NCBI GenBank assembly: GCA_025839675.1
Contig: CP104013.1
Location: 1,200,001 to 1,232,000, forward strand
Reading direction: 5' to 3'
From: Candidatus Lokiarchaeum ossiferum
GTDB taxonomy: Archaea > Asgardarchaeota > Lokiarchaeia > Sigyniarchaeales > Promethearchaeaceae
DNA length: 32,000 nucleotides
The notes below the pieces were generated by a model. That model did no database searches. It was not told where the DNA came from and worked only from the letters and a program-made list of their open reading frames with translations. Each line of letters begins with the position of its first letter. Position 1 is the stretch's first letter. Below are positions 61-31,000 of this stretch, one piece after another. The position numbers and the translations under genes are program-made.

Positions 61-1011
61 TTAATCAGAATCTTGAATATTGGATTCCCAAATCGGTTTG
101 AAATTCATCATTTTTTCCATGGAACATTTGGGACATTGAAAGAGATCCGCCGAGGTCTCATAGTACATCGTGGATCGTAAAAAACGCATTTTGGTTCCAC
201 ATTCACGACATATTTCATGATCTGCTTTCTGATTCTGCACATTAGACTCATTCTCCATAATTGGTGTGGTCATGGGAACAAGTTCATGAGTATCATCAAT
301 CACAAAAAAACTATAAGTTGCTGAAGGATTAAGATTCAATTCTAGAGGTACTTCAACGAGCTGACGTTTTTTTTCCAAACCTTGCACTTCAAACGAAAGT
401 TCTTTAACCTGTCCCTTAAACTTTTGATGGAGAGATTGAATAATTTCCATAGGATAAGGTATTTCCTTGGAAAAATAATTGTGGATGAGAAAGTCACGAA
501 TTTCTTGCCCTTTGATTAAAACTGAGTGGCATTGATCACAAAGAGAAAAATCAATACTTTTCTCGAGGGTCTGACATGAAGAACAATAACTAAATTGAGA
601 CACATCGATTAAATCTAAGACTTCCACCATGTTCTTTTTTATTTCTTGAAAATTTTCTTGTAACTCATTCAATTTAGAAACGGAGGAAATGATTTTTGGG
701 AGATCTTCTTCTCCAAAATCAGTAATTTTATTCAATGAAGAATTAGTCTGGAAGATGGAGGCTTTTATTAGCAAGATTAAATGATTTATATGAGATTCTG
801 CTTGAGAATACGATACATTTTTAGGTTTATTGGAAGTATCTACTTGAGTAAAAATAGGAAATGACGCAGAAATTTGACCTACAATTTGAATAATTTGAGC
901 AACCCAATGATCAATCAAATTTTTCGGTGAAGTTTTTTGCTCAGACATAGAAATTTGACTCTCGGGAAAATCTTCAATGGAATTTATCTGAGTATTTTTT
1001 TGGGGTGCCAT
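61..1011 (-). CDS. hypothetical protein with two four-Cys zinc-ribbon motifs
   Basis: 316-aa ORF. CSSC-x11-CDQC sits mid-protein and CREC-x21-CPKC near the C-terminus, separated by a K/E/Q-rich helical-looking segment. No family recognised. Confidence 0.5.
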   Translation of the reverse strand: MAPQKNTQINSIEDFPESQISMSEQKTSPKNLIDHWVAQIIQIVGQISASFPIFTQVDTSNKPKNVSYSQAESHINHLILLIKASIFQTNSSLNKITDFGEEDLPKIISSVSKLNELQENFQEIKKNMVEVLDLIDVSQFSYCSSCQTLEKSIDFSLCDQCHSVLIKGQEIRDFLIHNYFSKEIPYPMEIIQSLHQKFKGQVKELSFEVQGLEKKRQLVEVPLELNLNPSATYSFFVIDDTHELVPMTTPIMENESNVQNQKADHEICRECGTKMRFLRSTMYYETSADLFQCPKCSMEKMMNFKPIWESNIQDSD

Positions 1012-1134: not shown

Positions 1135-1341
1135 CTAAATATAATATTGTGGTTTTCGTTTGTTTATTTCGATTATTTTTTGTAATCGAACCAATTTTTT
1201 AAATTCACGTATTTCTTCTTCCAATAAACTTTCTACGACAAAGTCATCAAGTTCTTCAATTTCATCCCAATGTGAGGATTCATCGTAGCACGTGAGATCA
1301 TTAGAATTTTGATTATTCTCCTTGCGCAACAGAAGACACAT
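1135..1341 (-). CDS. small acidic hypothetical protein (68 aa)
   Basis: ORF co-directional with and 123 nt upstream of the 61-1011 gene. Amphipathic acidic/basic composition. No motif recognised, so it may be spurious. Confidence 0.25.
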   Translation of the reverse strand: MCLLLRKENNQNSNDLTCYDESSHWDEIEELDDFVVESLLEEEIREFKKLVRLQKIIEINKRKPQYYI

Positions 1342-1687: not shown

Positions 1688-2902
1688 ATGAGAAATTTGG
1701 TTGAAATCTATGAATTTTCCGATGATGGTGCTTGGTGTTGGTTTCAAGATCCCAGAGCAATCTTTATTAGAGGCATTTTTACCAAAACCTATGCTCAATG
1801 GATGACTCGAAAGGGAAAATTGCAATGTGGATCTTTCAACCATGAAACTAAAGAGATTAAAACTTTCACTTTAAAAAAAAACTGGGATAGAGACGATCAT
1901 AATGTTGGATCGTTTCTGATTCTTCCTGATAATCGAATTATGGCCTTCTATGCCCGTCATGACAAACCGGGATTATATTCGCGTACTACCGTGAATCCAG
2001 AAGATATTTCTCTATGGGAGGAGGAAGTAACTGTCTGCAAACAACGAAAGGTAACCTATTCTCATCCGGTTTATCTTCATTCGGAAAAATTATTTTTTGT
2101 ATTCTGGCGAGGAGAATCCTGGAAACCCACCTATAGCACCTCAAAGGATGGGAAAATGTGGAATTCCCCACAAGTTTTAATCCAAGACGAAGGAAGAAGT
2201 AAAAGATCTATTCGTCCATATACCAAAATATATTCAAATGGAAAGCGAATAATTCATCTTATTTTTACTGACGGGCATCCCCGAAATGAATCACAGAATT
2301 CTATTTATTATTTACAATATAAAAACGGTAAATTTCGCAAATTGAATGGAGATGTGATGGAAGTGACCGCAAACAACCCTATCCCCCACAGTAATTGTGA
2401 CAAATTGTACGATGGATCTTTAACCAACGTACGTGCATGGATATGGGATATAATGACTGATGATAAGGATCACCCTTATGTATTATATACCCGATTACCA
2501 TCTAAAACCGATCACCGATATCATTTTACCCGTTGGGATGGACATCAATGGTTAGACCAAGAATTGGTGAAAGCAGGTAGATGGTTCCCTCAAAGTTTTA
2601 TCTCCAAATTTGAACTAGAACCTCATTATTCTGGGGGAATGGTGTTTAATCAACAAAATCCAAACATAATTTATCTCTCCCGACAAATTAAATCTAATTT
2701 TGAGATTGAGAAATGGGAAACGAAAAATTTAGGACACACTTGGATTTCGACCCAACTTACAGCAGATTCAAAAAATATGAATGTTAGACCAGTTTTTCCG
2801 CGAGGTTATGATCAAAATACCGATCATATCCTGTGGATGCATGGAAAATACCGGTACTTCAAATTCTTTTACAATACCAAAATTAATTTACTGAAAGGTT
2901 GA
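1688..2902 (+). CDS. BNR_4-family (sialidase-like beta-propeller) protein, no signal peptide
   Basis: The N-terminal DDGAWCWFQDPRA, then DDHNVGSFLILPDNRIMAFYARH and repeated W/Y-rich strands, match my recollection of the BNR_4 (PF15892-type) family, which is mostly bacterial. Confidence 0.55.
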   Translation: MRNLVEIYEFSDDGAWCWFQDPRAIFIRGIFTKTYAQWMTRKGKLQCGSFNHETKEIKTFTLKKNWDRDDHNVGSFLILPDNRIMAFYARHDKPGLYSRTTVNPEDISLWEEEVTVCKQRKVTYSHPVYLHSEKLFFVFWRGESWKPTYSTSKDGKMWNSPQVLIQDEGRSKRSIRPYTKIYSNGKRIIHLIFTDGHPRNESQNSIYYLQYKNGKFRKLNGDVMEVTANNPIPHSNCDKLYDGSLTNVRAWIWDIMTDDKDHPYVLYTRLPSKTDHRYHFTRWDGHQWLDQELVKAGRWFPQSFISKFELEPHYSGGMVFNQQNPNIIYLSRQIKSNFEIEKWETKNLGHTWISTQLTADSKNMNVRPVFPRGYDQNTDHILWMHGKYRYFKFFYNTKINLLKG

Positions 2903-2953: not shown

Positions 2954-3742
2954 TTAAAACAAATAGGACATCACGTCATTAACAAATTTCACTTCCGATT
3001 CTAACCAAGCCGGATATTCTATGGGATGTGTTCCGATCATTTTCTTATTTCGCAAATACACAAATCGAAATGCTTCAATGATGATATTTTTTGCATAAGG
3101 GATGTAAGTTTCCACTTTGGCTTTAATACGTTCAGTTAAGGCGATTAAGAGAGAATTCAATACAGAAAATTCAATTTGACTTTTAGATTGTAAGAAAACC
3201 CGATTACGCTTTTCATCATAATAGAAATCTTCAGAATTATCCATTTCTACCGAACGAAGAATGTAAGAGATTTGGGTGAGAATTTCTTGACTCAAAGCAG
3301 ATTCGATGTAGTTTTCTAAATCATCAAAAATTTGAGAATATACTTCGAGTAAAATATTGCGCTGATTCTGGATATCATCCACAGCTAACACACGCTGAAT
3401 GGTTCGGATAAAATTTTTTTTTTGAACCGGTTTAACCAGATAGTCTTTCGCCCCATTATGCAATGCATTAATTACGGTCTCTTGTTCATCCAAGGCACTT
3501 AACATTACGATTTTCGCAGCGGGATCTTTCTTAATAATCGCTTCGATTGCATCTAATCCGTTCATTTCAGGCATAACAACATCGCAGATCATCAAATCTG
3601 GTTTTAATTCAAAATATTTTGCAATAGCTTCCTTTCCATTAGCAGCTTCCCCGACGACATCATATTCAAATTCTTTTAATAAGTTTCTAACCAATTGACG
3701 CATAAATAAGGCATCATCGACAATTAAGATTTTCGCAGCCAT
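2954..3742 (-). CDS. CheY-like receiver (REC) domain protein with an unrecognised ~140-aa C-terminal domain
   Basis: N-terminus KILIVDDALFMRQLV...DLMICDVVMPEMNG...VMLSA...DYLVKP is a canonical REC domain. Residues ~122-262 match no family I recognise. Last gene of the che cluster, 10 nt after cheD. Confidence 0.85.
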   Translation of the reverse strand: MAAKILIVDDALFMRQLVRNLLKEFEYDVVGEAANGKEAIAKYFELKPDLMICDVVMPEMNGLDAIEAIIKKDPAAKIVMLSALDEQETVINALHNGAKDYLVKPVQKKNFIRTIQRVLAVDDIQNQRNILLEVYSQIFDDLENYIESALSQEILTQISYILRSVEMDNSEDFYYDEKRNRVFLQSKSQIEFSVLNSLLIALTERIKAKVETYIPYAKNIIIEAFRFVYLRNKKMIGTHPIEYPAWLESEVKFVNDVMSYLF

Positions 3743-3752
3743 TCATATCACC

Positions 3753-4268
3753 TTAGATTTTTTTCATATCCTTACCGATTTTTTTAACAATGAGAACCCC
3801 ATTATCACAATTGAAGAGGATGGTTCTGCCCTTATCACCCAAGCAATCTTCGGCTTTGAGGGGAATTTTATGTTCTTCTAGCATTGCTTTTACCGCTTCA
3901 ACATTTCGTTTGCCAACATCAAAACGAGAGAAATTAAACATTTGAGCCCCTCCAGCAATTTTTGCAATGATTCGCGTTTTTTTGGCCCCCGCTTTTTCCA
4001 TATAATCAATCAATAGTGGTACTGCGGTGTTAGCAAATTTCCCTGGATTAAATTTCTTGTGATTTCGAATCGCATTACTGTCAGGCAACATGATGTGACT
4101 TAACCCTCCAATTTTAGTTATGGGATCCCATAAAGCAATTCCAACACATGAACCAAGTCCAACAGTTATTAACAATGTATCTGCTTTGCCAAGACTCATT
4201 TCAGAAATACCAATGGTGATTCGATTCGATTTTTGAGTTTGAACTGTTGTTGTAGACATTTTTTCCAT
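3753..4268 (-). CDS. cheD: chemoreceptor glutamine deamidase CheD
   Basis: 171 aa with GLGSCVGIALWDP (catalytic Cys) and GLSHIMLP (His), typical of CheD. Sits 6 nt downstream of the CheC-containing gene. Confidence 0.85.
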   Translation of the reverse strand: MEKMSTTTVQTQKSNRITIGISEMSLGKADTLLITVGLGSCVGIALWDPITKIGGLSHIMLPDSNAIRNHKKFNPGKFANTAVPLLIDYMEKAGAKKTRIIAKIAGGAQMFNFSRFDVGKRNVEAVKAMLEEHKIPLKAEDCLGDKGRTILFNCDNGVLIVKKIGKDMKKI

Positions 4269-4274
4269 CCCCGT

Positions 4275-5927
4275 TTAGAGCCCCATTTCTGATAACATAC
4301 TTGTAATTGATTCTGGAATTGGTAATATCAAAATATATCCTTCAATTTTCTTTTTCTCCACAATGATATCAGTGTTCAAAATTAAGGCAGTATCAACTTT
4401 TTCTTCCAATTCGATTTGGATAAAATCAATGACAGATCCAAGCATATCATAAGCCAAACTTGGAGGGCTAGGAATCATATGCAGCCCGGTAAATTCCGAT
4501 AGAGCGGTCAAATAATGACTTCCTAAAATATTCGCAATTTCCATCAATGCAGATTCATCCATCTGGCCTAAAGGCTCATTCGTTTCTAATTCCTCTTCAG
4601 GACGTTCTTGAAACAATAATTGATCGGATAATCTCAATGCGCTGGATTTCTTAAACACCAGCATCATATACATTGATACATCTCCTTCAACACCCAAATA
4701 GATGGCAATGGTCAACTGATCAGAACCCCCAAGTTTTTCTGAGAGAAATTCAGTAGGAACAACATCTACCCGAGGCACTGAGATATCAACCCGTTTATCG
4801 ATCATGGTGGAAAGGGCCGTTGCCGCATTTCCAGCTCCAATGTTTCCAATTTCTTGAATTAAGCTTCTTTGCATCTCATCTAAATCTTCGAAAGTTGTGT
4901 CCCGTTTTGTTGTAATGTTATCATATTGTGCATCCGGCAAGACTAATTTTCCTAAGGGAACTTCTTTTGGAGTTTCCAGAGTGATTTGAGGAGTATCAGT
5001 CTTTTTCCGAACGATCACACGTTTTACTTTTCTTTTCTTTGGTTGAACATCCACTTTTGAGTCAGTAGTATTGATTTTTAGTGCTTCAACATTTGAAGAA
5101 ACAGCAACTTTTGGTGATAAATCCATGGAAATTTTTGGTTGCTCTGATTTTGAATTAAAATTGATATTTAATGTGGAATCTTGACTTTGACGAATTTTTT
5201 CGATTATTTCCATTTGGCGTTCCTTAAAGGTATCATCAATTTTAGTTGATTTACTATTTGTTTGAGTAGTGAGCTTTGCCTGGAGGGTCGAGAGAATATC
5301 ATCTTTCTGTAAATCTTTCATTTTGAGAATTTCTGCTCGTATCTTTTCCCGCTCTTCATTTAACATCGTGGCTTTTCTTTCAACAATGCGCTTTATAATC
5401 GATTCTTCCTTTTGTTTGGCGACTAAATTAAGTACTTTGGCAATATCAAGTAACAGAATAAAATCAGAATCTCCATGAGCCTTATTAGCAGAAAAACTTG
5501 ATTCTTCAAAATTTTGACCTGTTTCGTTAAGTCCCAATCCCACCAAATAATTGGCATCAATATTATTGACAAGATAACGAGGTCTTGGCTCAATATTATG
5601 GGAAGAGAGAAGCATTACTTCTGAAACGGAATCAACCACCAAGCCAGAGATTTCATCACCAAACTCAACGATTAATACCCTCCCATCCTCTTTATATTCT
5701 GTCACATCAAAACTCAAACGTTTCCGAAGGTTTACAACAGGAATGATTTGACCTCTGAGGTTGATGACGCCCATAATATAATCTGGACAATTTGGAACTC
5801 GTGTAATATCATCCAATCGGATGATATCCCGAATCTGATAAACATCGATTCCAAAATTTATATTCTCAATCTGAAATCGGACTATTGGAATTTCCGCCAT
5901 CATTATTTGCGAATCTTTTATTGACAT
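4275..5927 (-). CDS. CheW domain - K/E/S-rich linker - CheC phosphatase domain fusion protein
   Basis: aa ~10-170 are CheW-like (FGIDVYQIRDI...INLRGQIIPVVNLRKRL...LLLDIAKV). aa ~345-550 are CheC-like with two copies of the S-x3-E-x2-N-x22-P active-site motif (S355..P385 and S459..P489). Confidence 0.85.
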   Translation of the reverse strand: MSIKDSQIMMAEIPIVRFQIENINFGIDVYQIRDIIRLDDITRVPNCPDYIMGVINLRGQIIPVVNLRKRLSFDVTEYKEDGRVLIVEFGDEISGLVVDSVSEVMLLSSHNIEPRPRYLVNNIDANYLVGLGLNETGQNFEESSFSANKAHGDSDFILLLDIAKVLNLVAKQKEESIIKRIVERKATMLNEEREKIRAEILKMKDLQKDDILSTLQAKLTTQTNSKSTKIDDTFKERQMEIIEKIRQSQDSTLNINFNSKSEQPKISMDLSPKVAVSSNVEALKINTTDSKVDVQPKKRKVKRVIVRKKTDTPQITLETPKEVPLGKLVLPDAQYDNITTKRDTTFEDLDEMQRSLIQEIGNIGAGNAATALSTMIDKRVDISVPRVDVVPTEFLSEKLGGSDQLTIAIYLGVEGDVSMYMMLVFKKSSALRLSDQLLFQERPEEELETNEPLGQMDESALMEIANILGSHYLTALSEFTGLHMIPSPPSLAYDMLGSVIDFIQIELEEKVDTALILNTDIIVEKKKIEGYILILPIPESITSMLSEMGL

Positions 5928-5946
5928 TTTTATTCGACCTATTTAT

Positions 5947-7050
5947 TTAATTTTTCTTTCTTTGTTCTTTCTTATTCAATTTCCTAATAAACGTTATAAT
6001 ATGTTGTGGAATATCATAGAGGGGAGCCACCATATCGGCGTACGGAGCAGCCATCTTGGGCATACCAAATACAACGGAGGTAGATTCATCTTCGGTAATG
6101 ACATACCCTCCCACATTCTTGATCAGATTGGATCCTCTTGATCCATCGCGACCCATTCCAGTTAAGACTACTCCCACAATATTGTTTGGGAAAATAGCCG
6201 CTGCTGATTCAAATAAATAATCTGCATTGGGTCTGACCCCGAGCATTTTTTCGCGTTCATCTAATTGAATACGAAAAAGGGGAAACTTACTTTTGGGATC
6301 TTTGACTATTGTCATATGAAAATCTCCAGGGGCAACATAAACATGGCCATTTTGTATAATTTCATCCTGACGGGCTTCAGAAACGGGTAAAATTGATAAT
6401 GAATTTAACCTATCTGCAAATGATTTTGTAAAACCTGATTGCATGTGTTGAACGACTAAGATAGGACAGTCAATATTAATAGGTAGATTTGGAATCACTT
6501 CTACCAAAGCTCGAGGCCCCCCTGTAGAAGAGGCAATAACTAAGATTTTCTCAATAAATTGATTGGTACTCCTATTGGAGGATGAAGGTTGAAATGATAT
6601 AGGACCACGAGAAATAGCTTGAATCTTACGTATTTTTGCTTGTACTGCTGATCTTAATTTGTTTAATATCTCCACTCGAATAGAGTTTAAATCTAACGAA
6701 ATTTCACCGCTTGGCTTGGGAACAAAATCAATCGCACCTAATTCAATAGCTTTAAATGTTGATTGTGCTTCTTTCTGACTGTAGGCACTCAGCATTATGA
6801 CAGGTCGGGGATATTTGTTCATGATATTATACAATGCTTCCAATCCATTCATAATGGGCATTTCAATATCGAGCGTTACTACATCAGGATTATAGATACG
6901 CACTTTGTCAAGCGCTTCATTTCCATTACGTGCTGTTGCAATCACTTTAAACTGAGGATCTGAATTTATTAAATCCGAGATTATTTTCCTCATAAATACC
7001 GAATCATCAACAACCAACACGTTATACATTTTCAATCTCCATTTTTTCAC
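5947..7050 (-). CDS. cheB: protein-glutamate methylesterase CheB (REC + methylesterase)
   Basis: REC domain (VLVVDDSVFMRK...VVTLDIEMPIMNG) plus esterase motifs ASSTGGP, VVQHM and GMGRDG. The start may instead be the internal Met at 7029 (MYNVLVVDD). Confidence 0.9.
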   Translation of the reverse strand: MKKWRLKMYNVLVVDDSVFMRKIISDLINSDPQFKVIATARNGNEALDKVRIYNPDVVTLDIEMPIMNGLEALYNIMNKYPRPVIMLSAYSQKEAQSTFKAIELGAIDFVPKPSGEISLDLNSIRVEILNKLRSAVQAKIRKIQAISRGPISFQPSSSNRSTNQFIEKILVIASSTGGPRALVEVIPNLPINIDCPILVVQHMQSGFTKSFADRLNSLSILPVSEARQDEIIQNGHVYVAPGDFHMTIVKDPKSKFPLFRIQLDEREKMLGVRPNADYLFESAAAIFPNNIVGVVLTGMGRDGSRGSNLIKNVGGYVITEDESTSVVFGMPKMAAPYADMVAPLYDIPQHIITFIRKLNKKEQRKKN

Positions 7051-7066
7051 AAGTTTTTACTCTAAA

Positions 7067-9196
7067 TTAAAAAAGCGAACTAACATCAATTATAAGAGCC
7101 ACTTTTCCATCACCCAAAATTGCTCCACCGGAAACACCTTTAACACCTTTTAGCATTCCTCCCAGTGTTTTAATAACAATTTCTTGTTGCCCAATAAGAT
7201 TATCTACCAATAAACCAACTTCCATTCCACCCCTTTCAATTACAATGATGGTTTTCATCGGAAGTGTGTCTAATTCTTTATCTTTTTCATTTTGGTTTTT
7301 GAATTGGACCAATTCACGGAGTCTCACAATGGACACAATTTTACCAAGGATAGTAATAACTTCCTTATTTTTAATCGTCCGAATTTCCTCTTCATGAATT
7401 ACAATTGTGCGAACGACATTATTAATGGGAATTGCATAGGTTTCTTCATGATCGAACTGTTTAGCACCCAAACTCACCAGAAGAGATTTGATTATTGCAA
7501 CCGTCAACGGCAATTTCAATCGAAAAGTAGATCCTTTGCCCATTTTGGACTCAACATCTACAATACCACCTAACGCTTCAATTTTTTGCTTGACAACACC
7601 TAACCCCACACCCCTGCCACTAATTTCAGATAACTTGTCGGCCGTACTGATCCCCCCCCCTAATAATAAACGTTTGGAGTCGTAATCCGTCATCTTTTCC
7701 GCATCTTCAGCGGTAATTAAGTGTTTTTCGAGCGCTTTTTCTTTGATTTTGTTAAAATCAATTCCTTTCCCATCATCAGAAATTTCAATAACAACGTAAT
7801 TTTTATCCCGATACGCAAGCAATTTCAAGGAAGCGATCTGATTCTTTCCAATCTTTTCACGTTCATCAGGCATTTCAATTCCATGATCAATTGAATTGCG
7901 CAGTAAATGAACAATAGGGTCTCCAATTTGATCAATAATTGTTCGATCTAATTCAATATCTCGCCCTTCCATGGAAAAATCAATCAACTTCCCTAAAGAC
8001 TTGGTTAAATCGCGTACCATGCGAGGAAAACGATCAAAAATATGAGAGACTGGAATCATTCGCATTTGTAGTACTTCTTCCTGCAAATCGAAGGTAATCC
8101 TATTGATTAAATTTAAAGTTTCATTTAATTCAGCAATATTATAAGTTTGAGCGACTTTGTCTAATCGGATTTTGGAAATCAATAATTCCCCAGTCATATT
8201 CATGAGGTTATCAAGATGTTTGATGGAGACCTTTACATTTTGAACGGAAAAATCTTTATCTTTCGACGTTTTATTGGATTTATTCTTCTTTTCTACAGCC
8301 GTTTCCGAAGATAACGATTTCTTCAACAATAATATATCAACTGTCTCAACAGCTGCCACACTTTCAATATCTTGCTGCAAATATTTGATTTTTTTATCAT
8401 TATCAATGAACACAATAATACTAAATTCCGTCCCAAAGTTTTCTTCCTTGAGATCCGCTTCATCCGGAATCATTCGATAGATTGTGCCAAAATCTTTCAC
8501 CTTTTTAACACACAAATAGGCTCGAGCATATTTCATCTCTGTTTTTTCAAATAACTTGATCTGAACCAGATAAACTGACTTGTTTTCTTGGGTTATTTTA
8601 TTAATTGCTACAATATCCTCATCTATCAACATCAATTCATCCGCAAACTGATCGAGCAATTCTTCAGTACTATTAATTTGCGGTATTGTGTCGAGCGCCT
8701 CAAAGTTGCTTGATATCTCTTCAACCTCGCCTTCCCCTTTTGATTCGGATATTAATGGTTCATCATCAGTATTTTCATCACCATTTTTTTCAGAATCATG
8801 TTTACTCGAAAGCTTGTTGATATAGGCATCGAGTTTGTTTAAAATGCCACTATAATCGACACTCGATTCATCACCATTCTCAATTTCCCCAATCGAATTG
8901 TCAAGAACATCCCGACATTCAAACAGCAGACTCGTCGTCTCTAAATCTGCCAGATGCCCTTGATTTTTAATAATATCCATAATATTTTCCATTTGATGGG
9001 TAAGGTGTGCAAAATCATTAAAACCCATTGTGGCCGCCATACCTTTCATCGTATGCGCCGTACGGAACATATCTTCTACATATTGCAGGTTCCCAGGATC
9101 TTTTTCCAAGGCAAGAATCTGTCTATCCAATTCCTCTAACCGATCCTTACTTTCTTCCAGAAAAAGGTCTTTATATTTGTCCATATTTTGTCCCAT
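7067..9196 (-). CDS. cheA: chemotaxis histidine kinase CheA
   Basis: Hpt (FRTAHTMKGMAATMGF), dimerisation region, HATPase boxes (HLLRNSIDHGIE, DDGKGID, SGRGVGLGVV) and a C-terminal CheW-like P5 domain. Confidence 0.92.
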   Translation of the reverse strand: MGQNMDKYKDLFLEESKDRLEELDRQILALEKDPGNLQYVEDMFRTAHTMKGMAATMGFNDFAHLTHQMENIMDIIKNQGHLADLETTSLLFECRDVLDNSIGEIENGDESSVDYSGILNKLDAYINKLSSKHDSEKNGDENTDDEPLISESKGEGEVEEISSNFEALDTIPQINSTEELLDQFADELMLIDEDIVAINKITQENKSVYLVQIKLFEKTEMKYARAYLCVKKVKDFGTIYRMIPDEADLKEENFGTEFSIIVFIDNDKKIKYLQQDIESVAAVETVDILLLKKSLSSETAVEKKNKSNKTSKDKDFSVQNVKVSIKHLDNLMNMTGELLISKIRLDKVAQTYNIAELNETLNLINRITFDLQEEVLQMRMIPVSHIFDRFPRMVRDLTKSLGKLIDFSMEGRDIELDRTIIDQIGDPIVHLLRNSIDHGIEMPDEREKIGKNQIASLKLLAYRDKNYVVIEISDDGKGIDFNKIKEKALEKHLITAEDAEKMTDYDSKRLLLGGGISTADKLSEISGRGVGLGVVKQKIEALGGIVDVESKMGKGSTFRLKLPLTVAIIKSLLVSLGAKQFDHEETYAIPINNVVRTIVIHEEEIRTIKNKEVITILGKIVSIVRLRELVQFKNQNEKDKELDTLPMKTIIVIERGGMEVGLLVDNLIGQQEIVIKTLGGMLKGVKGVSGGAILGDGKVALIIDVSSLF
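7652..7660 (-). repeat. G9 homopolymer (C9 on + strand) inside cheA, encoding Gly-Gly-Gly
   Basis: tga tccccccccc taa on the + strand encodes LLLGGGISTA just upstream of the G2 box. It is the longest G/C run I found in the window. Confidence 0.9.
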
Positions 9197-9245
9197 ATTC
9201 GTGCATCCTCTCTTCCATCAATGCCTACCAAAAAATATCCTGAAT

Positions 9246-9608
9246 CTAATGCAAAACTTTATTTACCGCTTCCAACACTCGTGCAGGTTTGAAGGGTTTG
9301 ATCACAAATTCTTTCGCCCCGGCTTCGATGGCCTCAACCAACAATCCTTGCTGCCCTAAGGCCGAACACATGATTATTTTGGCATCCGGATCATACGCAA
9401 TTATTTGTTTAACTGCCTCGATCCCATTATCCCCCGGCATCACGACGTCCATGGTAACGAGCGAAGGACTCAATTCTTTATATTTTGCAACGGCTTCGGC
9501 TGTATTCTCTGCCTCTCCCGCCACTTCAAAGCCATTAGAGACCAGAATATTTTTAATCATCATTCGCATGAATTTGGCATCATCTACGATTAAGACTGTC
9601 TTTCCCAT
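9246..9608 (-). CDS. cheY: chemotaxis response regulator CheY
   Basis: MGKTVLIVDDAKFMRMMIKNILVSNGFEVAGEAENTAEAVAKYKE...VTMDVVMPGDNG...IIMCSALGQQ...FVIKPF closely resembles Bacillus-type CheY. I trimmed the 159-aa track ORF to the Met at 9608; the Met at 9623 is an alternative. Confidence 0.88.
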   Translation of the reverse strand: MGKTVLIVDDAKFMRMMIKNILVSNGFEVAGEAENTAEAVAKYKELSPSLVTMDVVMPGDNGIEAVKQIIAYDPDAKIIMCSALGQQGLLVEAIEAGAKEFVIKPFKPARVLEAVNKVLH

Positions 9609-9814
9609 TGTAATTTTCACCATGTCATATATTCGGCAAAGGAGACCAACTGAATGACTCCAATCCCCCCAGTATTTAAAAACACATGAGATCGAGTCGG
9701 GTCCAAATTTCCGAAATATAATCAAGTATTAAGGAAGATTAATTCAACGACAGTTTAAGAATGTGGTTTTAGAAAGGTTTTGAAAAGGTTATCAAAAATA
9801 TTGTAAAAGTTTTG

Positions 9815-9822
9815 AAAAAAAA
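9815..9822 (-). terminator. oligo-T (T8) tract 14-21 nt downstream of the CheW-tail gene stop
   Basis: An A8 run on the + strand gives T8 on the coding strand just after the TAA at 9836-9838. Archaeal terminators are typically oligo-T. Confidence 0.35.
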
Positions 9823-9835
9823 CTAAATATCAAGT

Positions 9836-11152
9836 TTATTGAGAATGATCAATAATAATTTCAGGATGGTTTTCTTTGAGATAGTCAAGAATAGTTGAAA
9901 CCATGGTGGCTTTTTTCATTTTTTTAGTCAAAGAGAGATTCTTATATTCATTGAATTGGGCGATAATTTTAGCTTTGGTTAATGAATTCACATATTTTTC
10001 ATAATGTCTAACTAATTCATCGGTCAATTCTGGTGAAGGTTGTGTATTTTCGTTTACTTGATTAGCCGAAGCGGCATTCTTCTTAGAGTCAACAGCAGCA
10101 ATTAGAGCAGCAACATCATCATTGTTGATAGTTGTATCATCTGGAGCATCCAACAGATCAGCAGTCGCATCAACTGCAGATTCGTTATCGCTTTCAGCAG
10201 CTGCAATAAGGGCAGCAACATCATCATCAATATCATCTGATGGAGATGTTATATCTCCAGAAGAGTCTAGGAGTTTATCATCGGCAGGCGCTGAAATTTC
10301 ATTCCCATCTTCATCAACATACACATATTCCACACCGTCTTCTTCCGGTAATTCTTCCCCTTCCTCAAGATAAACAACTTCCTCTTCTTCAGAAGATTTT
10401 TGGAGATTTATCCCAAGTTCTTCTTGGATTTCCCGTAGGGCAAGTTTACGGATCATCGCTTTTTCTTTTTCTAAGTATTTTTCTTTCGACATGGTAGTAT
10501 TAGAAGAATAATTCATAGAAGAAAAAGCAGGATTACCTTCTTCAGCAATTATCGCCTGTGAAGCAGCAAGACGTCGATTTTCAGTTTGTTTCTCTTTGTC
10601 ACCCCGATTTTTATCGAGAAAGGACTTTATTTCGTGTTCTCTTCCAAAAAGCATCCCTAAATCTTCCAATTCATCCCCGGAAAATATTTTACCGAGATCC
10701 AATAAGATGATTAATCGTTCTCCTTCTTCTAAATTTCCTACTCCAAGCAGATATTCTTGCTCAATTTCTAAGGACAGAAGATTATCTGGAACAGGCTCGA
10801 TCTTCGTGAAGGGTAGGCTTAAAACTTCAGAAACATTATCAACAATCATACCTAGTAAGAAAGGTTGGAAATCTAATACAATGATTCGCATATTTTCTTC
10901 ATTAACGGTATTAAGCGGTAAGTTAAATCGTTTTCTTAAATCAACTACCACTAACGGTTGCCCTCTATAATTAATAATTCCTTCAATGAATTTAGCAGCA
11001 TAAGGTATGTTAGTAATATTTTGCATCCTAAGAATCGAATCTATCTTCTTTATATCAATTCCAAACTCTTCGGAGCTTAATTCAAATACAACCAATTTAA
11101 TTGAATCAGAATATATCGATTGCGCCATCAAAATTTCACATATAAAAAACAT
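9836..11152 (-). CDS. cheW: CheW-domain protein with ~270-aa acidic low-complexity C-terminal extension
   Basis: aa ~15-160 are CheW-like (FGIDIKKIDSI...INYRGQPLVVVDLRKRF...LLDLGKIF). The rest is D/E/S/A-rich with a duplicated DDVAALIAA segment and a helical C-terminal end. The start is 11152 or the Met at 11128 (MAQSIY). Confidence 0.8.
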   Translation of the reverse strand: MFFICEILMAQSIYSDSIKLVVFELSSEEFGIDIKKIDSILRMQNITNIPYAAKFIEGIINYRGQPLVVVDLRKRFNLPLNTVNEENMRIIVLDFQPFLLGMIVDNVSEVLSLPFTKIEPVPDNLLSLEIEQEYLLGVGNLEEGERLIILLDLGKIFSGDELEDLGMLFGREHEIKSFLDKNRGDKEKQTENRRLAASQAIIAEEGNPAFSSMNYSSNTTMSKEKYLEKEKAMIRKLALREIQEELGINLQKSSEEEEVVYLEEGEELPEEDGVEYVYVDEDGNEISAPADDKLLDSSGDITSPSDDIDDDVAALIAAAESDNESAVDATADLLDAPDDTTINNDDVAALIAAVDSKKNAASANQVNENTQPSPELTDELVRHYEKYVNSLTKAKIIAQFNEYKNLSLTKKMKKATMVSTILDYLKENHPEIIIDHSQ

Positions 11153-15643: not shown

Positions 15644-18592
15644 TTATTTCTTCGTTTTGCGCGGTCCAATCAAGGCAGTTACTAATTGCGGAATATCACG
15701 CAATTTCAACATTGTCTGGGGTGGAACTCGAAGTGATTTTCCAATTTTTTGAATTGATAAAAGAGCATAAATAATCCCTTCGAGATAATCGATAATATCG
15801 CCAGGAAACATGCGAACTTCATATTCATCTTGAAAAGTATCTACAATTTCAGAGATACTCATCCCAGAAAGGCGATAATCAAAAATAAATCCTTCAACAT
15901 TACGTTTCCCACAATCACAATAAGGATTATCATCACAGGCACAGTTAAATATATCTTCCGACCAGGCCATGATGACATTATATAACCGGCGATTGATCCT
16001 TCCATGTTTTTTCTTTCCCAAGTGATCTGCACTGATCATGGAGAGGACGGAAGTTGAAAAGAAATTGTTGGATCGGGATTGTTTTTCATTTTTCATGCTT
16101 AATTCTGCGAGAATTCGGTTGGTAACGTAAACATTATTAAATTTATCAAGATGTTGAGCAATAACTAACATATCGGGAGCAGGTACAGTTTCTGAAACTG
16201 GAACAAGTAATTTTTTGCGAATTTCCAAAGCTTGTTCCAATGAAAAAAATGATTCTGCAGTCGCTTGACCAAATCGTGTTGTTCGATATTCCGTATTATT
16301 ATTGATAGCCTTGATAAATCGATTAGAATGTAAAAATATCAAAGCTTGATGAAGATCAAAGTCACCATTGTACATCATAGCATGAAAATATTGTAAATTC
16401 TCTTTTGAAATCCCATGTTCTTGATCTCTTTGGGAGGAATACATTGCGATAATTGCCAAAACTTCCAAAAACATTCTATCTTCATTTGGTTCAAGTTTTA
16501 ATGGTTCAATTTTGCCCTTAAGTAATTTTAAAGCGAGTTGCTCTTCCGTATCACTTTGATTCCCGGCATTCGTTTTTCCGGGCGATACAAGAAGATATAC
16601 TGTTCCTTTGTCATGTTTTTTCAACCTACCAGCCCTTCCAGACATTTGTTCAAATTCTGCAACCGTTAGTTGTTGAATTCCCATGATTAGATTAAAGAAA
16701 ATGACATTACTTGCAGGAAAATCCACCCCCGCAGCAAGAGCGGCCGTAGTAACAACACAAGCAATTTTTTGCATTTCAAAACTTTTTTCGACAAATTTCC
16801 GTTGCCCATACTCTAAGCCTCCATGATAGGCGTAAGCGGGAACATGGTTCGCACGCAAAAAATCTGCAAATTTTTCGGTGTTTTTACGAGAGTTTGTGAA
16901 AACTATGGTTTGACCTCTGAATCCAAAGGACGAACGGGTTTTATATTCTTCCCGAATAATATTTCGCATATTCTTCATTTTTGCATTTTCATCGATACAC
17001 ATTACTAAATGACGTTCGAGTTCGACCGGTCTGTCTGTATAATGAACTAAAGCAGCCCGTAAATGCTTAGCTAAGCCTTTTGGATCCGAAATTGTTGCAC
17101 TCAAGTAGAGAAATTGAGCTTTTGGTAAATAAAGACGAAGACGAGCGATCATCCCATCCAGAATAAAACCTCGTTCAGCATCAGCAAGCATTTGAATCTC
17201 ATCGATAACAATGGTTCTAAAATCCCTAAGAAGATGGGGATGAGAACTCCTTAGAAGAATGTCAATCGCTTCATATGTGGCAATAACAACATCAGCTTTT
17301 CCAAATTGACCAAATTCATCTTTGACATTCGATTTCCGAGAAATGTGTGACACCCCTACTTTTAAAGCAGAATTAACCCCATATTTTTTAAATTCTGCAT
17401 ATTCTCTGTGACGCATATTTGCCAAAGCCACAATTGGAACGACATAGAGCATGCGAGTCCGAGTACGGGTATTTTTCAATTTTTCAAGATACGATTCTTG
17501 CTCTTTTGTTAATTTTTGTTCGATTTTTGAGTCAAATAAGGTATCCTTGGAGTCAAATGGATTGGAAATCCCTTCTTGTTTTAAAAATTTTATTTTATCT
17601 TCCAAAATTTTCGAAATACCTGCAAGTTCTCCAATCATGGTTTTTCCTGAAGAGGTGGCAGAGACCACAAGTTCATCTTGCCGTTCTAATAATCCATTTT
17701 CAAGAGCCATGATTTGGGCAGGAAGTAAAGAAGTACGATGTTTTTCTTGATAGTATAATTTTAGGGGAGCAGGTAATGAAAAATCATAAATACTTTGTGG
17801 TTTTTGGGGGGATTGTTTAATTTTTTTCTTTTTAACTCCGACGAGCGTTGCTTCTCGATGATCAAGGATATTGAAATTTGGATTAAAGACATTAATCACT
17901 TTTACTACATCACGATAATTTAATAATAAATCGCGCAAATAGGTTTTTAAAGAGGAAGATACATCAATCTTCTGCTTTAAACTTGCAATCACTTCTTTTC
18001 CTGCACATCGCTTACATACATAAAACGCTTGATTTTTATAGCGTGTTTTTTCATCAATTAATGTATATTTTTTATCTTGCTTGCAAGAATGGCAAAAGAG
18101 ATAATTGCGAATTTCAGAGTATTGAATTGAACTGCAATAATCATAAATTGGCTGAAGCACTTTCAAATATTCATCCATTTGATGTTGTTGAACTTCATGG
18201 GCGTCAGTTTCCACTACTTGATATTTCTCCAAATTATGTCCTTGGGGTTTGTTCAAATGATTCCCTGCAATAATGAAGGTAGCATTTAAAATAAAATTAC
18301 GAAACTCGGTAGGATCGATTGGTTTTAATTGATTCTCAACATTTCTTGCTTTTAAATTACGTTTCCAAAATTTGAAGGGAATAAGAGTTTCTTTTTCAGG
18401 CTCTTTATCAAATAACACAAGTCCTGTGAAAAAAGGGCGATCTAAATAGCGAATTTCTCCATAGAAAATATCATCTTTAATCAGTTCAAAACAAATGACA
18501 TCGAAGAAGGGTTTTTTAGGATGCTCTTCATCTTTATCAAGAATAATAAAATATTTTTTTCGTTGGAGAATACCAGATAGTGAAGGACTCAT
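15644..18592 (-). CDS. Ski2-like SF2 helicase with N-terminal 4-Cys zinc finger (ASH-Ski2/Eta-like)
   Basis: CHSC-x22-CKRC at aa 167-196. Helicase motifs SATSSGKT (I), VVPIVALAN (Ia), DEIQ (II), LSAT (III), TTAALAAGVDFPA (V) and QMSGRAGR (VI). C-terminal CAC-x6-CDC cluster. Confidence 0.8.
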   Translation of the reverse strand: MSPSLSGILQRKKYFIILDKDEEHPKKPFFDVICFELIKDDIFYGEIRYLDRPFFTGLVLFDKEPEKETLIPFKFWKRNLKARNVENQLKPIDPTEFRNFILNATFIIAGNHLNKPQGHNLEKYQVVETDAHEVQQHQMDEYLKVLQPIYDYCSSIQYSEIRNYLFCHSCKQDKKYTLIDEKTRYKNQAFYVCKRCAGKEVIASLKQKIDVSSSLKTYLRDLLLNYRDVVKVINVFNPNFNILDHREATLVGVKKKKIKQSPQKPQSIYDFSLPAPLKLYYQEKHRTSLLPAQIMALENGLLERQDELVVSATSSGKTMIGELAGISKILEDKIKFLKQEGISNPFDSKDTLFDSKIEQKLTKEQESYLEKLKNTRTRTRMLYVVPIVALANMRHREYAEFKKYGVNSALKVGVSHISRKSNVKDEFGQFGKADVVIATYEAIDILLRSSHPHLLRDFRTIVIDEIQMLADAERGFILDGMIARLRLYLPKAQFLYLSATISDPKGLAKHLRAALVHYTDRPVELERHLVMCIDENAKMKNMRNIIREEYKTRSSFGFRGQTIVFTNSRKNTEKFADFLRANHVPAYAYHGGLEYGQRKFVEKSFEMQKIACVVTTAALAAGVDFPASNVIFFNLIMGIQQLTVAEFEQMSGRAGRLKKHDKGTVYLLVSPGKTNAGNQSDTEEQLALKLLKGKIEPLKLEPNEDRMFLEVLAIIAMYSSQRDQEHGISKENLQYFHAMMYNGDFDLHQALIFLHSNRFIKAINNNTEYRTTRFGQATAESFFSLEQALEIRKKLLVPVSETVPAPDMLVIAQHLDKFNNVYVTNRILAELSMKNEKQSRSNNFFSTSVLSMISADHLGKKKHGRINRRLYNVIMAWSEDIFNCACDDNPYCDCGKRNVEGFIFDYRLSGMSISEIVDTFQDEYEVRMFPGDIIDYLEGIIYALLSIQKIGKSLRVPPQTMLKLRDIPQLVTALIGPRKTKK

Positions 18593-24802: not shown

Positions 24803-26302
24803 CTACATGGATGGAATGATGTCGTGAAATTTGACGATCACTGAATCGGGATTTTTGGTAAATTGTTCATAAGTCACCATAAATTTTTTAAAACTCGGAA
24901 GAGCCCCTAAAATTGCAGCTCCCTTGAAAGAGGCATAAAAACGATCCTTTGGAGTAATTATTTTGATATCGTTCATCGTGGTATTTGTTTTTTTTTCTAA
25001 CAACGTAATTAAATCATTAATTTCATCTTCTGACCCATATTCCCCTTCAACTTCACTAGCGATATTAGCAAGCTCATCATCATCAATTGAAGTTTTTTTT
25101 ATCAGTTTTTTTTCCTTACGAGATAATTTATGATGAGATTCATCAAGGATTTCAATCTGATTTACTTCCAGACTAAATCCGCAATAAGGACAAAAGGAAC
25201 TTTCGTTTAAAATAACGATTTCTCCACATTTGGGACAATTATCTTCCGTTTTTTGGTTAAGTATTTCAGATGGTCTCTCAACTTTTTCCTCTGCATCTTC
25301 GATTTTCGGTTCATCTTCTTCTGGTGGAAAGGGTCCCAATTGGGGGAGAATTTTTTGAATTTCATCTACTAATCTAGGAACTAAGCCTTGCAGATAGGAT
25401 GATCCTCCAGAAAAGATTATTTTCTTCAATAAAGGACGCCAATAAAATGGATCTACTGCTCTTAATGAATCAATTACAGCTTGAGGTAATGCTGGTGAAT
25501 TCAATCCAATTAAACCCGGGTTAAATAATATTTCCCCACTCATAATTACTGATTGAGAATTAATAGTTAAGGGTTCTCCATCTGGTAAAGTAAATATTAC
25601 ATTATTTGCGGGATCGACAGAATCAGAAGTGGGATTGAGGGATATTTTTAAAACTTTTTCTTTAATCTCACGCACAATTTCCTTTTTTATAAAAATACCA
25701 TATTGTGTTAAAGCCGAAGCAAGTTGCTCTTCAACATCTATTCCCGCCAAATTCAACCTTTTAATGCTGGGAGCATAGATTTGACCATTCATGACTGGAG
25801 TTACATGGGTTAATCCACACCCCAATTCTATGGATAAACCAGTTGTTTCTCCTATTGAAAAGACCGCAGTTGTTGCAGAATCGAGCATAGCCACAGATTT
25901 GCACTTATGAGTTTCAAATAAGACTCGAGCAAAATATTGTGCAATGTCTGGGAGGGTTAATGGAGGAATCAAATAAATAACATTACAACGTGCAGGCGGA
26001 ATTCGTAAAACATTATAAAAAATGTGATTTAAAATTGCGAAATACTGATCCCAATCCATCACATTCCCACGTTTTATTGGATAATCTAATTTGAGAACAC
26101 CACGCATTCGAATAGTATCATTTCCGACATAGATATCTTGAGTTTGGCCGCCTGCCATCTGTTGATATTTGGGTTTGCCGGTCACGGTAGGAAAAATAGA
26201 ACGAGGGGTTTCTTCACCTGCAAATCCTACTTTTGTCGAACCTTGACCAATATCGATTATTATTGTATATTCATTGCTCTCTTCATGTGTCTCTGTACTC
26301 AT
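24803..26302 (-). CDS. actin-family protein (Arp-like) with a ~120-aa insertion containing a CPKC-x11-CPYC zinc ribbon
   Basis: Aligns by eye along the whole length of eukaryotic actin: DIGQGSTKVGFAGEETPRSIFPT (phosphate-1), YPIKRGNVMDWD, ELGCGLTHVTPV (phosphate-2), LNLAGIDV, FSGGSSYLQGLVPRL (adenosine), IKIITPKDRFYASFKGAAILGAL. The insertion spans aa ~323-445. Confidence 0.9.
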   Translation of the reverse strand: MSTETHEESNEYTIIIDIGQGSTKVGFAGEETPRSIFPTVTGKPKYQQMAGGQTQDIYVGNDTIRMRGVLKLDYPIKRGNVMDWDQYFAILNHIFYNVLRIPPARCNVIYLIPPLTLPDIAQYFARVLFETHKCKSVAMLDSATTAVFSIGETTGLSIELGCGLTHVTPVMNGQIYAPSIKRLNLAGIDVEEQLASALTQYGIFIKKEIVREIKEKVLKISLNPTSDSVDPANNVIFTLPDGEPLTINSQSVIMSGEILFNPGLIGLNSPALPQAVIDSLRAVDPFYWRPLLKKIIFSGGSSYLQGLVPRLVDEIQKILPQLGPFPPEEDEPKIEDAEEKVERPSEILNQKTEDNCPKCGEIVILNESSFCPYCGFSLEVNQIEILDESHHKLSRKEKKLIKKTSIDDDELANIASEVEGEYGSEDEINDLITLLEKKTNTTMNDIKIITPKDRFYASFKGAAILGALPSFKKFMVTYEQFTKNPDSVIVKFHDIIPSM

Positions 26303-28098: not shown

Positions 28099-31000
28099 GT
28101 GGGAGTCAAAGGATTAGTTTTGGCATTATTTTTGTTCACAAATTTTTGTTTTTCAAGTTCAATTGAATATAATATGGAATCGGAGCTTGTAGAAAAAGAT
28201 CAATTTAAAAATGGGAATGAACGTCCAACTACGGGTAATGAAGTATTAATTAAAGATCCGATGGAAATAGATCCAACAATCTACGATCAAGATCCAATCG
28301 AAACTTGGATATATATCGAAGGAGAATTGGGAAATAATGACTGGTATATTTCAGAAGTGACTATTCAATTAGAATGTTCTCGTTTAGAAGCCGATGTTTT
28401 TTTTTCTGTGGATAATCAAGGATGGGAATATTATGATGGTATGCCGATAATAATTGAAGAAGATGGAGAACACATCTTTTCTTATTATTCAGAAGACATG
28501 TCAACAGGCGAGATTGAAACAACTAATGAAGAAATCATAAAAATTGCAACATCAATCCCTGTAACCAGTTTTGAAATTATGGGAGAGTTAAATACTGATG
28601 CGACAGCATATGTTTCTGAAGTTTTTTTGACACTAGAGGTTTTAGAATTCTTTACGACAGAATTTGACATATTTTACATTATAAACAGCGGAGATCCCCA
28701 ATTGTATCAAGGATCTATCATATTAGACGAAATTGGAATATATTTTATTGAATATTATGTAAGTATTGAAGCCAGAGAATATGATGCAGAATTTATCCCT
28801 GAATTTGAGATAACTATCGAGGAATATAAAATATTTTGCGATCTTATTGGGACAATTGGAGATGATAATTGGTACATATCAGACATTGAAATCACCATTG
28901 ATAATTTTCAGATGGAGCCAATTTATTATAGTCTAAACGGTGATCCGGAACAGGAGTATACCAGCCCCATGATCATTTCTGAAGATGGAATGTATGATCT
29001 ATATTTCTATTCTTCCATAAATGGACAGTTAGTTGAAGGATCTCAAATTTTTAGCATTGATCAAACATCCCCCACAACGGATATCGAAATTATGGGAATT
29101 ATGGGACAAAATGAATGGTACCTTTCAGAAGTAGAAATTTCATTTGATAGTATTGATCTTAGTTCAGGGGTCAAAGAGACATATTATAGCTATGACCAGA
29201 TGAATTGGAACGTGTATTCAACAATCATCTCAACCACAATCGAAGGTTCGAACACAATTTACTTTTATTCAACCGATAATGCTGGAAATGTAGGAGAAAC
29301 ATTGTCGCAAATTTTCTATATAGAAACTTCAGAAATTGAGGTAAATGTAGAATTCGATGGTTTAATGGGAGATAACAGCTGGTTTAAATCTGATGTAGAA
29401 ATATCTATTACAACAAATCAAATTGCATCTGAAATCGCAGCTTTCACTTACAGTACAAATGGAATAGAATTTATTCCATACACAGGAACATTTTACTATA
29501 CAGAAGAAGGAGTAAACTTTATCTATTTCAATATATCAAGTAATGCAGGACATAATTCATTTGGTTATAGAGAAATTTCTATTGATAAAACAAATCCTTT
29601 GACAACACTCAATATTTCTGGAATAATGGGAGAAAATGACTGGTATATAGCAAATATTGATCTCGATTTCATCTCTACTGATCTTGAATCAACAGTTGCA
29701 TCGATCTATTATAGTTTTGATAATATAACTTGGTCAATTTTCGATGGAACTCCAATTAGCATTGATATAGATGGAATTTATTCATTATTTTACTACTCAA
29801 AAGATTTAGCGGGAAATATTGAACAATACAAATCAGAAATAATCAAAATTGATACAAAAGCTCCCGAAATTTATATTGAATATTCAGGTACAATGGGAGC
29901 CAATGGTTGGTATACCAGCGATGTTGATATATTAATTTCACTAAATAATAGTACGTCGGGAATTTATGAAATAAGCTGTACTTTGAACGGAAATATAATT
30001 TCTCCTTTTATCAACATGATAGAAGTAACTTCTGAAGGAGAAAATATCTTAAATATAGAAGTAACAAGTTTTAGTGGGGCAAAAATCACATATCATGACA
30101 TAATCAAAATAGATAAGACAAGTCCTACAACCGAAATTTATTTTGATGGAGATGTAGGGTCGAATGGTTGGTATTTATCAGAAGGAAATGTTTCTCTAAC
30201 AGCATCAGACAATTTGTTAAATCAATTTCAAATATGGTACAAGATTGATGCGAATGATTGGATGATTTATGAATTTCCTTTGGAATTTTTAAGCGACGGC
30301 ATATATAACATATCCTTCTATTCAACGGATTTTGCTGGAAATAAAGAAAGTGTTAAAGAATTTAAACTTGCACTCGAATTAACTAAACCAGAAGTATTGA
30401 TAAATATTTCGGGTATTGAAGGGAATAATGGTTGGTATAATTCTATAGTTCAAGTAATTCCGTTTGTAACCAATTCTATTTCTGGTCACACACAGTTTAC
30501 TTACTCAATAAATAATGAATCATTTCTTCCATATTTTGTTCCATTAAATATTTCTGAAGAAGGATATAACGATATTAAATTTGAATTGTTGAGCATTGCT
30601 GGAAATATTGTTTTTCAAAATATTTCTCTTTTAATAGATTATTCTAATCCCACAATTCTGTGCAATATTAGTGGAGTTTTAGATGAATTTGATCAATATA
30701 AATCACCAGTAACTGTAAATTTAACTGGAATCGACAAATATTCAGGCATAAATAACATATCTTATAGTTTAGATGGAAATATTTGGAAATTATATACTAG
30801 TCCTTTAGAGTTTTCTGAAGATGATTTCTACATGCTATATTTCGTTGCACTAGACAACGCAGGAAATTTTGGAACTATAAACACTTGCAGTTTTATTATA
30901 AACAAAACCATTGATGAGCAACCATTGAGACACTGTTATGGTTGGACATTTATGTTTAAAGAACATCATTGGTGGTTTGGATTAGGAGAATTGTGCATCT

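Follow-up and report, generated by a model that had tools for sequence, protein, structure and literature searches.

We analyzed a 32-kb window (the whole stretch of DNA considered here: contig CP104013.1 of assembly GCA_025839675.1, forward strand, positions 1,200,001–1,232,000) that carries a chemosensory (che) operon, which probably represents an F1-type core combined with lineage-specific parts. Several proteins encoded in the window were identical to GenBank entries of Candidatus Lokiarchaeum ossiferum B-35, an Asgard archaeon that has been brought into culture and whose 6.03-Mb genome is closed, and this identifies the source and bears out an initial annotation of this DNA that had called the genome Asgard-like. 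The seven che genes (locus tags NEF87_000977 to NEF87_000983) all lie on the minus strand, as that annotation had stated, and each was confirmed by a Pfam match. They are given below in their order of transcription, with the extent of the open reading frame (ORF) where it differs and protein lengths in amino acids (aa).

9836–11128 (ORF to 11152), minus strand: CheW-tail coupling protein, NEF87_000983, 430 aa from M9 (RefSeq start)
9246–9608 (ORF 9246–9725), minus strand: CheY, NEF87_000982, 120 aa; Pfam Response_reg, 97.5 bits
7067–9196, minus strand: CheA histidine kinase, NEF87_000981, 709 aa; five Pfam domains
5947–7029 (ORF to 7050), minus strand: CheB methylesterase with receiver, NEF87_000980, 360 aa; CheB_methylest (191.6 bits) and Response_reg
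4275–5927, minus strand: CheW-CheC fusion, NEF87_000979, 550 aa; Pfam CheW (106.6 bits) and CheC (96.8 bits)
3753–4268, minus strand: CheD receptor deamidase, NEF87_000978, ORF of 171 aa (RefSeq 168 aa); Pfam CheD, 124 bits
2954–3742, minus strand: REC-X, NEF87_000977, 262 aa; Pfam receiver, 101 bits

With the likeliest ATG starts, the genes from cheY to REC-X are separated by 49 (CheY-CheA), 37 (CheA-CheB), 19 (CheB to CheW-CheC), 6 (to CheD), and 10 nucleotides (nt; to REC-X), which agrees with the 6–49 nt first annotated; the CheA-CheB gap falls to 16 nt if CheB uses a GTG start. The CheY ORF as listed begins at an upstream TTG, and the real protein of ~120 aa starts at 9608, matching gene calls in relatives (120–122 aa). 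The CheW-tail gene, in turn, is separated from the downstream cheY by 227 nt and has a T8 run behind it, and in a related locus (L007) two unrelated opposite-strand genes with ParB_N and PAPS_reduct/DUF3440 domains (L007:3825-5879) split it from cheY, so it is separable from the rest of the operon. Given the gap, the T8 run, and this insertion, the CheW-tail gene is probably transcribed separately from cheY onward.

The synteny comparison that the initial annotation had proposed showed that the order CheW-tail, CheY, CheA, CheB, CheW-CheC, CheD is kept in four other Lokiarchaeia loci (L006, L007, L008, and L094; the L008 contig ends within cheA), with identities of the fusion protein down to 34–36% in the most distant ones. 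Domains of MCPs, CheR, CheF, or the archaellum were found in none of the window's major ORFs, its gaps, or its edge ORF, just as first reported, and MCP, cheR, cheF, and archaellum genes were likewise absent from these four loci. The PF04283 (cheF) domain was also not detected among window ORFs or the called genes of the four loci and of two further ones (L009 and L012), which carry a second che-like module (see below). The window yielded no Rfam matches and no tRNAs. All catalytic and signature motifs of the operon are intact, and no frameshifts were present. The possibility of a horizontal-transfer island was ruled out by GC content (0.35–0.38 in the operon vs 0.32–0.35 nearby) and by the gene order kept in relatives.

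Core proteins and class assignment

The system was compared with the F1 class of Wuichet and Zhulin, as used in MiST. The domains that define an F1 CheA (Hpt, dimerization, kinase, and CheW-like domains, with P2 optional) were all found, and a CheC-type phosphatase and CheD occur alongside CheW, CheY, and CheB, as expected for this class. Specifically, CheA comprises P1 (Hpt, with H48), P2, P3 for dimerization, P4 (HATPase, with N, G1, and G2 boxes), and a CheW-like P5, and scored 494 bits against the NCBIfam model CheA_Halo vs 343 against the E. coli-type model; CheA_Halo and CheY_Halo were the best-scoring NCBIfam models for CheA and CheY, respectively, both under cut-off. Along its full length, CheA is 38% identical to Firmicutes CheA (tblastn against plasmids, where the matches listed were all bacterial). 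Further, CheAs of 690–698 aa with the same domains from Lokiarchaeia (order CR-4) are labelled cheaF1 in Table S3 of Berry et al. 2023.

CheY consists of a receiver only and has the residues of a CheY-type single-domain regulator, namely D9/D10 (acidic pocket), D54 (phospho-Asp), S82 (Thr/Ser), F101 (aromatic switch), and K104 (Lys). It is 62% identical to CheY of Bacillus velezensis, so its description as Bacillus-like held, and among solved structures it scored best against T. maritima CheY (167 bits), followed by those of P. horikoshii (135) and M. maripaludis (99). Archaeal-type CheYs have a markedly negative alpha-4 helix to which CheF binds. In the CheY of the window, alpha-4 (GQQGLLVEAIEAG) resembles the Thermotoga and Bacillus proteins; alpha-4 of REC-X (DEQETVINALHNG) is more acidic than that of CheY, and the P. 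horikoshii CheY counterpart reads GQEAKVMEALKSG.

CheB matched NCBIfam PRK00742 over cut-off (391.6 bits) and has the motifs STGGP168, VQHM193, and GRDG293, which we take to carry the catalytic Ser, His, and Asp, while CheD matched NCBIfam CheD models with 176 and 171 bits and has the motifs GSC39 and HIMLP58, presumably carrying the catalytic Cys and His.

Compared with the F1 systems of Thermotoga maritima and Bacillus subtilis (CheA, W, Y, B, R, C, and D), the operon encodes the same enzymes, including a five-domain CheA with P2 and a two-active-site CheC paired with CheD, and its CheY has the Bacillus and T. maritima relationships given above. It differs from these systems in that CheC is fused to CheW via a ~180-residue linker, one CheW bears a ~280-residue tail, an extra CheY-like protein carries an orphan domain, and the cheR and MCP genes are unlinked; the host, moreover, is an archaeon without flagella, and FliM/FliY therefore cannot be the target. 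Receptors expected with the F1 class are of the 44-heptad type. CheC, CheD, and CheY have their nearest counterparts in Thermotoga, Pyrococcus, and Bacillus. Because of these relationships, the CheA matches, and the F1 label given by Berry et al. 2023, the operon is, as judged by homology, an F1 core of the Thermotoga/Bacillus/euryarchaeal type, which narrows the "bacterial-type" system of the initial annotation to a class.

Fused and orphan parts

Three unusual architectures had been pointed out at first annotation, and all three (CheW-CheC, CheW-tail, and REC-X) were recovered here. The CheW-CheC protein consists of a CheW domain (5427–5885), a charged linker of ~180 aa with 21% K+R (4893–5426), and a CheC part (4278–4892). 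The latter matched NCBIfam CheC_Thtogales with 168.7 bits, aligned with T. maritima CheC (PDB 1xkr/2f9z) across 200 aa, and contains the active-site motif [DS]x3Ex2Nx22P of the CheC/CheX/FliY family twice (residues 355–385 and 459–489), with the motif E and N invariant in 9/9 CheW-CheC fusion proteins. The architecture was found in nine protein clusters (P0121-P0126 and P0146-P0148), of which the named ones are archaeal (Promethearchaeota or just "archaeon") and three are of unknown origin. The term CheW-CheC was found in no paper, and in the annotation table of Nerearchaeum the orthologue of the fusion is entered as "CheW + CheC".

Covalent joining of a phosphatase or a CheW scaffold to a pathway part, which localizes the activity, is also seen in the CheA-CheC/CheX fusions of Leptospira F1 systems, in FliY (CheC-FliN), and in CheV (CheW-receiver), and the Leptospira fusions provide a precedent for tethering a phosphatase to the array. 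In the protein described here, the partner of CheC is neither CheA nor FliN but a free-standing CheW domain. By analogy with the Leptospira fusions and with the Thermotoga CheC-CheD complex, we infer that the fused CheC and its CheD partner would be held at the receptor array, which would make CheW-CheC a clean natural example of an array-tethered phosphatase.

The CheW-tail protein has a CheW domain (~10679–11095; Pfam 105 bits) and a tail of ~280 residues (9836–10678). When the protein was aligned with its orthologues (L006, L007, and L094) and with the paralogues of L009 and L012, the region after CheW resolved into a conserved helical motif (ER.MIRKLAL.[DE]IQEELG), then a low-complexity stretch rich in acidic residues (25% D+E), and finally a conserved segment of ~55 aa at the C-terminus, for which no Pfam match was found; by eye this segment looks like a helix-extension-helix motif, an assignment that we set aside as Pfam gives it no support. 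The ER.MIRKLAL.[DE]IQEELG motif is common to CheW-tail proteins and the shorter CheW2 paralogues (L009:9197-9982 and L012:9251-9982). It may represent an extension of CheW particular to the Lokiarchaeia lineage.

REC-X combines a CheY-type receiver (3383–3742) with an orphan helical C-terminal domain of ~140 residues (2957–3382). The best PDB relatives of the receiver are CheYs (6er7 with 125 bits and 1tmy with 123), and its phospho-acceptor residues are intact and form the same set as in CheY, although the extra domain of 140 aa places REC-X outside the strict single-domain CheY type. REC-X is named CheB in GenBank yet has no methylesterase domain, and the name appears to stem from receiver similarity alone. 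AlphaFold predicted the full protein with a mean local confidence (pLDDT) of 86 and the C-terminal domain alone with a pLDDT of 88.7 and a template-modeling score (pTM) of 0.83, as helices with one hairpin, a fold that differs from the two PH-like domains and long tail of CheF.

Foldseek matched the C-terminal domain to nothing in the PDB (best E 0.28), and an exhaustive profile search among 1.84 billion representative proteins returned six matches. Five of these are proteins of 262–273 aa aligned from residue ~121–130 onward, as in REC-X, and the sixth is a 31-aa fragment. Neither the JGI metagenome scan nor the other fetched loci contained the domain. A scan of the genome collection with a REC-X alignment gave 80 loci, all but two of them bacterial, with neither L. 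ossiferum nor a full-length REC-X locus included; receiver patterns had been matched instead. Within the operon, a REC-X placed after CheD is restricted to the L. ossiferum clade (the window, L006, and L007) and is absent from L008 and L094.

Beside the operon itself, a second che-like module was observed in the L. ossiferum genome (L009:2307-16504, the NEF87_000407 locus) and in a related one (L012:9251-16817). Its CheA (NEF87_000407; 542 aa) has P2-P5 without Hpt/P1, is 71% identical to the window CheA, and is preceded by the CheW paralogue CheW2; the L009 module adds a CheY-like protein (CheY2) and two weakly matching proteins, one CheC-like and one with a longin domain. In both genomes, genes for actin and an Arf-like GTPase are located 3–4.5 kb downstream of the module. 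A CheA that lacks P1 and retains P2 is unusual, as Berry et al. 2023 found an Hpt domain in every CheA surveyed, and this CheA might use P1 of the window CheA in trans.

Receptors, output, and alternative explanations

Very few relatives of the archaeal ancestor of eukaryotes have been brought into culture. L. ossiferum is one of them, and it both has chemoreceptor arrays and crawls by means of actin. The locus itself is already published; the new elements here are the examination of its fused and orphan parts and the finding that cheF is consistently missing from the operon copies examined. The genome paper reported 15 MCPs together with cheA/B/C/D/R/W/Y in L. ossiferum, putative chemoreceptor arrays in two tomograms obtained by cryo-electron tomography (cryo-ET), and che genes in 27/97 Loki- and Heimdallarchaeia genomes, as well as a P. 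syntrophicum that lost or never had the system (PMC9834061). Its supplementary orthologue table, in the part available, assigns MCP, CheA, CheR, and archaellin families to L. ossiferum and not to P. syntrophicum, and also gives archaellins and FlaI for L. ossiferum (PMC9834061). In addition, archaellum machinery is encoded by L. ossiferum according to a 2026 preprint, and in the sister species Nerearchaeum the same operon is accompanied by three MCPs, CheR, six archaellins, and ArlH/I/J encoded elsewhere.

These reports change how the local absences should be read. The initial annotation had inferred a different, possibly non-archaellar, output from the lack of receptor, cheR, cheF, and motility genes in the 32 kb. 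With receptors encoded elsewhere, its main argument is removed, and the inference is not supported in that form, as MCPs, CheR, arrays, and archaellin families are all reported for the genome. Most of what would speak against that inference therefore exists (MCPs, CheR, and archaellins, along with an annotated fusion in Nerearchaeum), with the exception of cheF, which is neither present in any of the five operon copies nor listed in the available parts of the two curated tables.

As a whole, the locus is probably best explained as an F1 core operon with lineage-specific parts. With the steps of the core mechanism modeled on characterized F1 systems, MCPs encoded elsewhere, CheA, and the two CheW-domain proteins would form the membrane arrays seen by cryo-ET; CheA would autophosphorylate at H48 and hand the phosphate to CheY, CheB, and REC-X; and CheB, CheD, and an unlinked CheR would adapt the receptors. 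The fusion of CheC (a CheY-P phosphatase) to CheW would put signal termination and CheC-CheD feedback at the array, one CheW bears an acidic tail ending in a small conserved domain, and REC-X may add a phosphorylation-controlled branch in which its orphan helical domain acts as an output adaptor or a phosphate sink. That the operon encodes a functional F1 chemosensory core working with unlinked receptors and CheR seems to us, from sequence comparison, very probable.

To our knowledge, nobody has stated what the chemosensory system of L. ossiferum controls, and the question is now narrowed to one step, from phosphorylated CheY (CheY-P) or REC-X to an effector without a recognizable CheF. The candidate we place first, with about even confidence, is an archaellum-type filament encoded elsewhere and coupled without a recognizable operon-encoded CheF. 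Che and archaellin genes co-occur or are jointly absent in three cultured relatives (L. ossiferum, Nerearchaeum, and P. syntrophicum; published tables), and an archaellar output is thereby favored. In the euryarchaeal pathway (Halobacterium, Haloferax, Methanococcus, and Pyrococcus), CheY-P acts through CheF on ArlCDE; L. ossiferum resembles these archaea in having an F1-type che core and archaellin genes elsewhere in the genome, and differs from them in that cheF, which is usually found inside archaeal che operons, is absent from the window operon and its four syntenic copies, and in that its CheY gives a better score with Thermotoga CheY than with either archaeal CheY of solved structure.

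Several points weigh against an archaellar output of this kind. The five operon copies (window, L006, L007, L008, and L094) contain no cheF, and CheF and ArlCDE are not among the entries that the available parts of the curated tables list for L. ossiferum or Nerearchaeum. No surface filaments have been observed on L. ossiferum, and its observed motility is actin-dependent crawling by protrusions. REC-X cannot be a universal coupler in place of CheF because the more distantly related copies of the operon (L008 and L094) lack it.

Part of this evidence could be accommodated by a non-archaellar output, in which the phosphorylated form of CheY or REC-X binds a target specific to Lokiarchaeia (e.g., regulators of actin protrusions or cell-cell contact structures), so that the array steers cell shape or adhesion and not a rotary filament. 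Such an output would fit the missing cheF, the confinement of the REC-X orphan domain to this lineage, the crawling in the absence of seen filaments, and the second che-like module close to actin and Arf-like GTPase genes in L009 and L012, and bacterial chemosensory systems are indeed known to control non-flagellar outputs. We nevertheless regard it as unlikely, since che and archaellin genes come and go together in the three cultured relatives, L008 and L094 lack REC-X yet keep the rest of the operon, the preprint on crawling makes no mention of chemotaxis, and actin synteny among close relatives is weak evidence, with the actin-related gene of the window 13.6 kb off. A bolder version, distinctly speculative in our judgment, is that this Lokiarchaeia clade uses an F1 array without the CheF-ArlCDE coupling of all described archaea and passes the signal via the REC-X orphan domain, and perhaps the module of CheW2 and P1-less CheA, to actin protrusions; if true, a prokaryotic chemosensory array would steer eukaryote-like crawling.

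The two remaining alternatives deny the system either its partners or its function. Decay of a bacterial che operon that was acquired horizontally and no longer functions would be compatible with archaella that have gone unseen and with the loss or original lack of the system in P. syntrophicum, but the catalytic motifs are all intact, the genes are free of frameshifts, order and sequence are kept across loci at 34–47% identity, GC content is near that of surrounding genes, and arrays were observed (PMC9834061), which makes decay highly improbable. Hardly any weight can be given to a self-contained pathway in a genome without receptors, CheR, and motility genes, for which the 32-kb local absence of such genes is the only argument; it conflicts with the published 15 MCPs, CheR, and cryo-ET arrays (PMC9834061) and with the CheR and archaellin families in the available part of the supplementary table, and the intact active sites of CheB and CheD would have no known substrate without receptors.

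Flanking genes

The other features of the window are as follows.

61–1011, minus strand: zinc-ribbon-like protein, 316 aa, NEF87_000973, with two CxxC pairs and weak zinc-ribbon Pfam matches; syntenic downstream of the operon
1135–1341, minus strand: acidic protein, 68 aa, with orthologues in L006 and L007 (51–52% identity); directly downstream of REC-X in relatives
1688–2902, plus strand: BNR_4 (sialidase-like repeat) gene, between REC-X and the acidic and zinc-ribbon genes
15644–18592, minus strand: DEAD-box helicase, 982 aa, with a DUF5814 C-terminus
24803–26302, minus strand: actin-related protein, 499 aa, NEF87_000996; residues 11–321 match actin 5–323 (~205 bits)
28099–31197, plus strand: possible surface protein of 1032 aa, with bacterial Ig-like domains; the exact sequence is not on record, perhaps owing to a different start
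~31260–32000, plus strand: partial ORF at the right window edge that looks like an ERCC4/XPF-type nuclease

The initial annotation had placed eukaryote-like cytoskeletal genes next to the operon. One actin-related gene is indeed present, but it lies 13.6 kb from the che operon with ten unrelated genes between, and its 128-aa neighbor, checked as a possible profilin, gave no profilin match and only weak matches to ModE-type helix-turn-helix domains. The actin-related protein, whose score is moderate and whose UniRef name is "Actin-related protein", continues after the actin-like part with a zinc ribbon (~353–379) and 120 more residues.

Downstream of the operon, REC-X is followed in L006 and L007 by the small acidic protein, the zinc-ribbon protein, a CheC that stands alone, and a large protein in which Pfam finds no domain; L. 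ossiferum has what looks like the same set, with the BNR_4 gene after REC-X. Because the acidic and zinc-ribbon genes directly follow REC-X in L006 and L007, the BNR_4 gene appears to have been inserted in L. ossiferum specifically. The orthologues of the 316-aa zinc-ribbon-like protein in these two loci are 36–41% identical to it, with the Cys pairs invariant.

A further contig (L003) extends the window 3.6 kb leftward and shows three more genes downstream of the zinc-ribbon protein (L003:1538-4853, ~0.5–4 kb past the left window end). The first encodes a protein of 826 aa whose sequence suggests a multi-pass membrane protein that contains a coiled coil and, at the C-terminus, a zinc ribbon; it weakly matches FlbB (flagellar collar; E 1.6e-5). 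The second encodes a protein of 89 aa, and the third, on the opposite strand, a stand-alone CheC-like protein. In L006 and L007, CheC occupies the place matching that in L003, and the large unannotated protein there may correspond to the 826-aa protein.

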